64,000 nt of DNA from Mizuhopecten yessoensis (lineage: Eukaryota). A program made the position numbers and the translations under genes. Positions 6,835-8,977 of this stretch are shown one piece after another. The stretch is taken from contig NW_018480073.1 of NCBI RefSeq assembly GCF_002113885.1, positions 1 to 64,000 on the forward strand, given 5' to 3'. The first letter of the stretch is position 1. Each line of letters opens with the position of its first letter. Below the pieces are notes generated by a model that saw only the letters and a program-made list of their open reading frames with translations, had not been told where the DNA came from and searched no databases.

Positions 6835-8977
6835 TGTAACACGAAGACACAAAACTCAGTCACAACAGTTCAGAAATACAAGCCTATATACGCAACGTGT
6901 ATACCATGAGGGTTACAGAGATTACGGACCCCATGGAGATACAGTTCCCAGATCACTTGGGTAGCCTTGAAACTTGTACCTAGCTTTATTATATATACAC
7001 TGTATGTTAAAAGTTATTGTATGGTAGGTAGGTTATATTTGAGGAACCTTGTCGGTAGGGATAATAATAATAATAATAATAATATTTATTCAGGTAAAAG
7101 GCAAATAATACACGTATATCACATTTTGCAGATTGGACATAAATATATATATATTATCACTGATGTTATGTATAAGTTATTTATGCCATAAAACTAGTTA
7201 TCAGTCAGGTGTTAAAACTGGATTGGATTAGATTAATTTAGGCCTTTACCTGGGATGATCTATAAAGCCACATTGTGGCTTAATTCCAATGGGGTCCCTT
7301 AGATCTAAATAAATCAATTCCATTCATAAAATAGTTACATAATTATATAGTATATATTAATAATTTGATAAGACTCTAAGACACTTCTTTTATAAAAAAA
7401 AAAAAGAAGATATAAAATGTTACATGTGCCATAGCCTATAATCAATAAAATAATGCTGGTAATTGAATGATATAAAATATGAAAAGATTAACATTATATT
7501 GGAATTTTTAACAATCAAAGATATATAGTATTAACTTCAAATGTTACTTACCAAAGGGCTGGTGATTGGGCCAATCCCTACCGACCAAACTCTCAGACAT
7601 TAACGTACATTAATAAAATTGATTGACATGTACTGGTATATAACGTATACTAATAAAAAACTAATACAAAGGATACATTTAAACCAATTGAATTTTATAC
7701 AAATCTGTTTGCTTTTTGCAGAAGAGGACTGTTGGTTGGGCCAGTCCCTACCGACCAAACTCTCTTACTGCATAAAGTAATAGTTATTGACATGATGTGT
7801 CTATGACACAACATCAAAAAAAGTAATATGTAAATAGGATTTAAGTCAAATGTATAATGATGTTGAATAATTCAATTGACAAATTTTAACAAGTTTTATT
7901 TAAATTAATTGCTACTTGCAGAAGAGGGCTGGTGGTTGGACCAATCCCTACCGACCAAACTCTCAGACTGCATATAAAGTAACAATATAGTATACTTTGA
8001 TAACAGTGTTTATGATAATATTTGAATTAAGAAGCAATAGAGTATATCACTGAAGTCTCACCATTACCCTTTCAAAAAATCACATTTTTGTTCCGATCTA
8101 AACTTTGATGTCAAATGTTGTTTAACCAGAATTTTGAATCTGTGTAAGTTGTTGGTTACCTTAATATTATCTGATAATGCATTCCAGTCCTTTATTGCAT
8201 TGTAAGAGAAAGATGTGGACTCTACCCCAGTTATATTATGAAAAAAGTTATATTGGCTTGATCTTGTAACCTCTTGTTGTTCCTTTCAAAACCTTCCTTC
8301 ATATAAGCTGGACATTTTTCATGAACAATTTTAAAAACATGGTTTAATCTCAGTTGAGCCACTCTATTACTTACATTCAACATATTTAATTTTTCCAGTT
8401 CTGCAAAAGTTATTCTTTTCCTCCAATCTAAATCCAAAATAATCCAAACAACCTTGTTTTGTGTAACTTGAAGTTTTTGTTTAAGATTTTTGGAGATACC
8501 CTCGTACCAAGATGAGCAAGCATAGTCAAAATGACATTGGAGATAGACTTTTTCTGGTTCGGTATAAAAAAATAGTCTCTGATTACCCCAATCACTTGGT
8601 AACTTATTGTTATATTTGTTGATAGGTAGACTATATGTGATTATGTGAATAACCTTGTCGGTAGGGATTGGCCCAACCACTTGGTAACCTATTGGAATTG
8701 TTTGTTATAGTAGATAGTGATATATATACTTAAGGTAAATAGAGTTCACAGGTGCGTGTCTTGTAATTGAATTAATATATTTATACCGGTCTGTATTAAG
8801 GGGTCCGGTACCTCGGTCGGCGCGGAAGTTGTGTAGTATTTATTGTATGCTATTGAGAGGGTGAATGTATTTATTGTGTTGTCCTGTATTGTAGGTTTCT
8901 CGGAGCTAGAGTAAAGAAAGATATATACATAAACAACTTGTCCGAGTTTTTATCTTAAAACTGAACAACCGGTGACA
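6835..8977 (+). mobile_element. Possible solo LTR (~620 bp) interrupted by the LINE at 7061-8580
   Basis: TGTAAC...GTGACA termini; TATA-like and AGTAAA signals in the 3' part; no clean TSD. Confidence 0.4.
7061..8580 (-). mobile_element. 5'-truncated CR1/L2-group non-LTR retrotransposon (ORF2 C-terminus, 3'UTR, (ATT)n tail)
   Basis: Minus-strand peptide CHFDYACSSWYEGISKNLKQKLQVTQNKVV...RLNHVFKIVHEKCPAY resembles the post-RT region of CR1/L2 ORF2; AATAAA-like signal then (ATT)n at 7061-7090; gat at both junctions. Confidence 0.85.

Follow-up and report, generated by a model that had tools for sequence, protein, structure and literature searches.

A Short Hairpin Motif Shared by LINE and Gypsy-Type Retroelements of Mizuhopecten yessoensis, a Candidate Site for a Host RNA-Binding Protein

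Retroelements of two classes in the genome of the scallop Mizuhopecten yessoensis, LINEs and Gypsy-type LTR retrotransposons, have in common an RNA motif of 23-25 nt that is predicted to fold as a bulged helix closed by a GGG/CCC hairpin. This cross-class motif is real and apparently undescribed. In the initial annotation of the window (the whole stretch of 64,000 nucleotides that was analysed, positions 1 to 64,000 of contig NW_018480073.1) it had been taken for a module common to two retroelement classes; the sharing and the sense-strand location were borne out, and the range turned out to be far wider than two elements, with about 20 families carrying it. We tentatively regard the motif as a candidate site at which a host RNA-binding protein would promote the nuclear export and cytoplasmic use of unspliced element RNA.

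Motif Copies in the Window

Seven pattern matches to the motif were counted in the window, where 0.01 would be expected (Table 1). The four whole copies named in the initial annotation were recovered by pattern match, and the copy of the host element at 8657 proved identical to the first and third LINE copies at 23 of 24 positions, as had been noted, and to the second at 22 of 24. The loops AUUGG, ACUGG and AUUAC and the differing outer stems of these copies match their description. The split host copy is also genuine: its halves (7051-7062 and 8584-8595) lie on the two sides of the LINE, which is bracketed by a 3-bp GAT duplicate (7060-7062/8581-8583). Relatives carry RVT_1, and over 1.2-1.55 kb other copies in the genome match this LINE at 79-92% identity.

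Table 1: Features of the motif and its host elements in the window.
Feature	Position	Strand	Remarks
Leader fragment of Gypsy-type LTR retrotransposon	6871..8761	+	Interrupted by the LINE; without gag or pol
Left half of host motif copy split by the LINE	7051..7062	+	
5'-truncated CR1-group LINE, family A	7063..8580	-	Broken ORF2 end, stop 8064-8066; 3' UTR of about 1 kb
(ATT)n tail of the family-A LINE	7063-7083		
Motif in LINE 3' UTR	7562..7585	-	Variant with a G.U wobble in the lower helix; 46.3 bits (the training set of the model included a family-A copy sharing this 39-nt stretch)
Motif in LINE 3' UTR	7732..7755	-	Loop ACUGG, last base decayed; 34.8 bits
Motif in LINE 3' UTR	7932..7955	-	About 110 nt past the ORF2 stop; 45.5 bits, training-set member
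Target-site duplication (8581-8583), then right half of split host copy	8581..8595	+	
Intact host motif copy in Gypsy leader	8657..8680	+	50.8 bits, training-set member
Gypsy-family LTR	8764..8977	+	Joined to the leader fragment by internal deletion; no motif; no PBS after it
Extra motif copies	3218-3241, 3957-3980, 4696-4719	-	Inside a 739-bp tandem triplication, 3' end of the same LINE

The initial annotation had placed the host copies in an LTR-like element. This needs correction, since the LTR (about 8764-8977) is motif-free and the copies sit in the adjoining fragment of a Gypsy 5' leader. The fragment matches long 5' leaders with 3-5 detected motif copies. At three loci (L064, L062 and L071) the matching leader holds 4-5 detected copies directly ahead of a gag ORF, which is of the PNMA type in L062 and L064, and at L060 an LTR is followed by a PBS and then by the matching long leader with its motif copies. 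The Gypsy-type assignment of the host rests on the LTR with PBS and the PNMA gag of related copies and on RNase H/integrase in related carriers, and the host is no decayed LINE copy. The LTR has at least 36 other genomic matches (81-90% identical), and one of 19 LTR-end matches is followed by a PBS. The host in the window is an internally deleted Gypsy remnant in which the leader is fused to the LTR and the motif lies in sense orientation.

The three extra copies at 3218, 3957 and 4696 are not independent, because a single LINE end is present there as three near-identical tandem units. The repeated unit (739 bp, three times, window 2563-5058) consists of the LINE 3' end and 280 bp of neighbouring DNA; the units are identical at 737-739 of 739 positions and 98.5% identical to 7186-7650. 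The triplication is either a recent tandem duplication or an assembly artefact. Raw reads on the window copy are negligible in number (34 in 4 runs, none of them 99% alike); contigs labelled or guessed to be RNA contain parts of the family-A LINE. The motif copies within the window are probably dead passengers.

Elsewhere in the window, a weak BTB/POZ domain match was seen at 18872-19432 (+) (E 0.007). Contig C4564 (L068) carries a gene similar to this candidate, together with flanking repeats that are also common with the window. A separate short inverted repeat, TATCGG...CCGATA, lies at 5566-5612, and the repeat in which it lies is partly duplicated near 6490-6650.

Distribution among Retroelements

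The motif was counted with two disjoint exact patterns, which gave at least 332 matches (110 + 222) in the 988-Mb genome and 0 + 0 for the reversed controls. As the census was built on patterns and not on a covariance model, it is a lower bound that is blind to diverged variants. A loose form of the pattern was uninformative, with 399 genome matches (340 in the control), and other apical stems placed on the motif gave 26 (40 in the control). The loci studied comprised the first 30 of each pattern search, 60 regions hand-picked for variety (57 from the two exact-pattern lists and 3 from the loose-pattern and other-apical-stem searches) and longer stretches around 18 places. They contain 166 distinct instances, a set that leaves out five prokaryote-like metagenome loci and matches less than 60 nt from a locus end, in 29 flank clusters that correspond to about 20 families.

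The clade labels of the LINE carriers are presumptive, as they come from Pfam hits (RVT_1, zf-RVT) and from C-terminal features, not from a reference tree. CR1-group LINEs (families A, G, H, I and others) have the motif in the 3' UTR, families B, C, D, F and K are RTE-X-like with a C-terminal CCHC knuckle, and a single L1/Tx1-like LINE with zf-RVT (L128) is interrupted by another insertion. Gypsy carriers have the motif in the 5' leader (family E, L120/L122, L121 and L130) or in the 3' UTR that separates pol from the polypurine tract (L118 and L119). The available portion of PMC10294476 lists the CR1, RTE-X and L1-Tx1 clades for bivalves. The RT fragments of distant carrier families are 24-46% identical (A and H, 70%), and once the core is masked, similarity of the flanks within 300 nt is found in just 2 of 190 pairs of family representatives. 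Near-identical 24-mers, loop included, recur across families of the CR1-group, RTE-X-like and Gypsy kinds, and the loop AUUGG is identical in 6 of the 20.

An element has one to six copies of the motif, or more where it lies in tandem arrays, and they may stand in either UTR; paralogous copies within one element retain the core while their flanks diverge. At three LINE 3' ends (L114:2910-3485, L124:1614-1860 and L149:1640-1900) the motif unit is repeated in 40-52-bp tandem arrays of up to about 11 copies. An inverted duplication of a LINE 3' UTR (L026:1500-1600) breaks in the motif region and leaves two back-to-back copies. In an unclassified element, within a region that has flanks like those of L072, a second motif-like copy (L161:985-1023, -) lies about 450 nt away on the opposite strand. 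No recognisable host-gene UTR carrying the motif was found among the fetched loci.

The predicted sense-strand bias is present. A TE protein match lies within 2.5 kb of 111 of the 166 instances, and the nearest one is on the motif strand in 99 of these 111, a count that includes self-matches, as the reference TE proteins were drawn from the same loci. Eleven of the 12 exceptions are explained: eight are Gypsy-leader copies met by a reference frame that overruns the host, all with a sense gag downstream; the others are an inverted duplicate, a nested case with a sense RT upstream and the host in the window, next to which the LINE runs antisense. The twelfth exception is L105. The remaining 55 instances have no protein nearby, and those inspected are LINE 3' fragments or unclassified repeats.

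Outside this genome, viral contigs gave 0 and 0 motif matches, and prokaryote genomes gave 2 in 596 Gb, with no above-chance excess by a rough estimate. Six matches were found in metagenomes, five of which (18-21 bits) lie in prokaryote- or phage-like contigs and were treated as chance. The sixth (L079:57-79, -), in an animal-like contig, has its own outer stem and a U.U/U.U loop and scores 37.6 bits; this single contig is without a TE protein match or similarity to the fetched loci of the scallop genome. It hints at a wider taxonomic range of the motif. An Rfam 15 covariance search of window 6500-9500, against families that include ribozymes, IRE, SECIS and s2m, returned one chance match (E 4.6) and none on the motif, and a literature search by six motif strings and keywords returned no such shared element; Dfam/Repbase and bivalve TE libraries may bear on its range and its novelty.

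Predicted Secondary Structure

The predicted core consists of GU, one bulged base (C, A or U), GGU, an A.A mismatch, GGG, a variable loop of 4-6 nt, CCC and AYC-AC, so that the order of pairs is G-C, U-A, bulge, G-C, G-Y, U-A, A.A and three G-C. The initial annotation had drawn CGGUA/AAYC as an open internal loop. That drawing did not hold: GGU pairs with AYC with probabilities of 0.97-1.0, only one bulged base and the A.A remain, and the open-loop fold is 3.7-6.3 kcal/mol worse than the bulged helix. The copies in the window do not by themselves fold better than shuffles (z +0.4 to -1.5), and the structural case is drawn from other families. The long hairpins in A1, B, C, C2 and F reach z -3.3 to -6.2, while D and the Gypsy copies are weak; families B, C, F and H have bulged hairpins of about 30 bp. 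The sense-strand fold is more stable than the antisense one in 18 of 22 family representatives.

Significant covariation, which had been named as a test of the fold, was found for the outer stems and not for the core. When the flanks of the 22 representatives were swapped, the pairing energy was -23.6 kcal/mol with their own flanks and -15.4 kcal/mol with swapped ones (0 of 20,000 permutations), and the own 3' partner was the best for 12 of the 22, a signal to which shared base composition may add. In the core, one pair alternates between G-C and G.U in 8 of the 22, and no pair shows a two-sided change. This invariance is partly circular, since the instances were chosen by pattern, and because of that bias two core pairs were probed with the 5' base changed. 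This gave 7 and 17 matches in the genome, most of which are known variants decayed at one site; A-U forms in 3 of the 7, in copies already having U, and the pair is restored in none of the 17. The bulge and the loop vary among families, and the paired positions and the A.A are fixed. What is conserved is therefore the structure of the outer stem and the sequence of the core. As the core has no two-sided covariation and its alternatives are only sporadic decay, support for its pairing comes from energy, the one wobble and the context. Its invariance fits sequence-specific binding of a protein or copying between elements, and we infer that the fold would form inside cells.

The NXF1 Gene

A canonical-looking CTE was found within an intron of the NXF1 gene (L178:3066-3124; contig C5491, about 38065-38123, +). 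Each of its strands is at most one mismatch from the 10-letter SRV-1 hCTE motifs, and its predicted fold has a purine-rich internal loop. It is the only convincing canonical-CTE match in the genome: the search gave 2 matches, this one and a chance-like one (7 in the control), and no TE-borne canonical CTE. The gene was located with the Tap-RNA_bind profile; the TAP_C profile gave no match. Similarity of the exon before the intron to human NXF1 extends to DQSTYI (E 2.5e-7). The intron, at 713-5548, is spliced and has an in-frame stop after the donor, and the CTE region is covered at a read depth of about 1-4 in 4 of 4 runs; 1801-2700 is without reads. We take this intron to be the counterpart of human intron 10. 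In the accessible text of PMC4338338 the NXF1 CTE is found in vertebrates and not in fly or worm, and among the titles returned by a keyword search of the literature none described an invertebrate NXF1 CTE. The element would push NXF1 autoregulation back beyond vertebrates. No copy of the motif turned up in 60 kb at the NXF1 locus. A weak second Tap-RNA_bind match (C4701:38368-38499, E 0.18) is a possible NXF paralogue, with no motif within the 30 kb around it.

Putative Function

To our knowledge, how long, A/U-rich, unspliced LINE and LTR RNAs leave the nucleus is largely open beyond a few vertebrate retroviruses, some mouse elements and one worm element. The motif is predicted to recruit a host protein, presented on a stem that is specific to each element; the bound protein would promote nuclear export of the long unspliced RNA, which could then be used in the cytoplasm. 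It would have spread by exchange between elements and then been kept by selection. That the motif is a site for a host protein with some function of this kind is probable, judging from an invariant helix in which the mismatch is fixed and the bulge and loop are free, from unrelated stems, from sense-only occurrence in either UTR and from the unrelated proteins of its carriers. The reader would be a protein of the host and not of the element, because the carrier RTs are only 24-46% identical and the Gypsy machinery is unrelated. Export as its purpose is suggested by a motif that is position-independent, duplicated and partly CTE-like and by a need that LINE and LTR RNAs share. According to PMC4338338, retroviral CTEs are thought to be duplicated for better function.

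The same host protein might instead serve RNA localisation (for example to the germ line or oocyte), stability or translation, which we consider unlikely, even though all the structural and distribution evidence fits such a role equally. The bulged hairpins of families B, C, F and H recall localisation signals, and the bulge that binds NXF1 is missing. The gurken and I factor RNAs have localisation signals in common, and such signals share shape rather than sequence; the core of the motif, in contrast, is invariant in sequence, and no motif-bearing host mRNA turned up among the fetched loci. Less likely still, the motif could be a passenger cassette with little or no function, passed by template switching or recombination between retroelement RNAs that are expressed together. 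Such exchange would account for near-identical 24-mers, loop included, in CR1-group, RTE-X-like and Gypsy elements and for a core without covariation. The AUUGG loop found unchanged in 6 of 20 families suggests copying between elements, which requires no function and counts against export. A mere passenger, however, would not explain why sharing ends sharply at the core, why every family has its own different complementary stem, why the bulge and loop vary while the pairs and the A.A do not, or why copies within an element keep the core as their flanks diverge.

A role in retrotransposition itself, with the motif recognised by RT, ORF1p or Gag or mediating RNA pairing, appears improbable. The 3' UTR location, about 200-500 nt from the tail in the LINE families viewed, and one LINE inserted into a motif would agree with it, but RTs this divergent, the different machinery of Gypsy elements and the occurrence in 5' leaders argue against a shared reader of that kind, and the carrier LINEs possess separate clade-specific 3' terminal sequences. 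Targeted insertion of the LINE into the motif was rejected, as just 1 of 15 family-A 3' junctions lies in it. We give hardly any weight to a DNA element, either a transcription-factor site (for example paired CCAAT boxes) or a cruciform. Its fixed sequence, the ATTGG/CCAAT of some copies and the multi-copy arrays near the promoter in the Gypsy leader are what such a site would show, whereas the strict sense orientation, the pairing that tolerates G.U, the better fold of the sense strand and the motif-free LTR speak for RNA; moreover, 14 of 20 families have a loop other than ATTGG, and CCAAC outnumbers CCAAT (13 vs 7).

If the motif is indeed a host-factor site for export, 24 nt that work across classes would be a direct bait for finding that factor, and through this one site the host could control many retroelement families together. 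The distribution of the motif indicates that non-coding modules are able to cross the divide between LINE and LTR elements.

Comparison with Known Elements

Likenesses to the IRE, hammerhead, HDV, Y-RNA, attC and zipcode elements were dropped, as their defining bases do not fit. Stringent LINEs (UnaL2, ZfL2) end in clade-specific tail hairpins that the RT of the element itself reads. These resemble the motif as conserved hairpins in a LINE 3' UTR, and this identity was rejected, since the motif is found in LINEs of several clades as well as in Gypsy 5' leaders, in multiple copies and hundreds of nucleotides from the tail. The Conserved Hairpin Site of GalEa Copia elements, in the excerpted text of PMC5445492, likewise has a strict A/A mismatch and a variable loop and spans families; it differs in that its sequence is unrelated, it is fixed at the PBS position in one fungal Copia clade and it is proposed as a reverse-transcription primer. 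As that site replaces the PBS (palindromic CHSeq1) and a Gypsy carrier has a normal PBS with the motif far downstream, it was rejected too.

The motif as proposed here would resemble the IAP RTE, the MusD MTE and the L1-NXF1 element, cis-acting structured UTR RNAs that use host export factors; each of these belongs to one lineage and runs to hundreds of nucleotides, in which it differs from the motif, and they are likened to it by description only. These three (the last a 3' UTR element) are retroelement export elements mentioned or cited in the consulted portions of PMC11379458 and PMC4338338.

A further close comparison is with the CTE, known from MPMV/SRV-1 and from intron 10 of vertebrate NXF1, also a duplicated retroelement hairpin in the sense strand of a UTR or intron (PMC4338338 and PMC7551171, as far as their available text goes). 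Both have a GGUA/AACC helix beside an A.A, a comparison made here with hCTE ends taken from the primers in PMC4330393, and both have a nearby G-C/AC register and a G|GUA like a 5' splice site. A relaxed pattern, written after both had been seen and therefore post hoc and weak, matches the local CTE-like element and 125 of 200,000 shuffles. The motif differs from the CTE in that a short GGG/CCC hairpin closes its core and in that it also occurs in LINEs and 5' leaders. A circularly permuted motif gave 2 genome matches vs 2 in the control, and the motif model gives no score on the NXF1 CTE. Identity with the CTE was rejected, as the conserved AAGACA internal loop (accessible part of PMC4330393) is absent from all 22 family representatives. 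The flipped-out A13-G14-A15 of that loop bind NXF1, according to the excerpt of PMC5961109; in the motif AYC-AC is direct, with no such bulge, and the three flipped-out purines are missing. Since these features are absent while the NXF1 intron keeps a canonical-looking CTE, direct binding of NXF1 in the known mode is unlikely. It is conceivable, if somewhat doubtful, that the motif is a CTE-related signal of molluscs, and perhaps of other invertebrates, a hairpin that LINEs of three clades and Gypsy elements adopted for one host export or transport factor, with a contact that would differ from the NXF1-CTE interface and with the canonical CTE kept in the NXF1 intron of the host. The motif is not a CTE, and would most likely act in the manner of a CTE-type site for a host factor.
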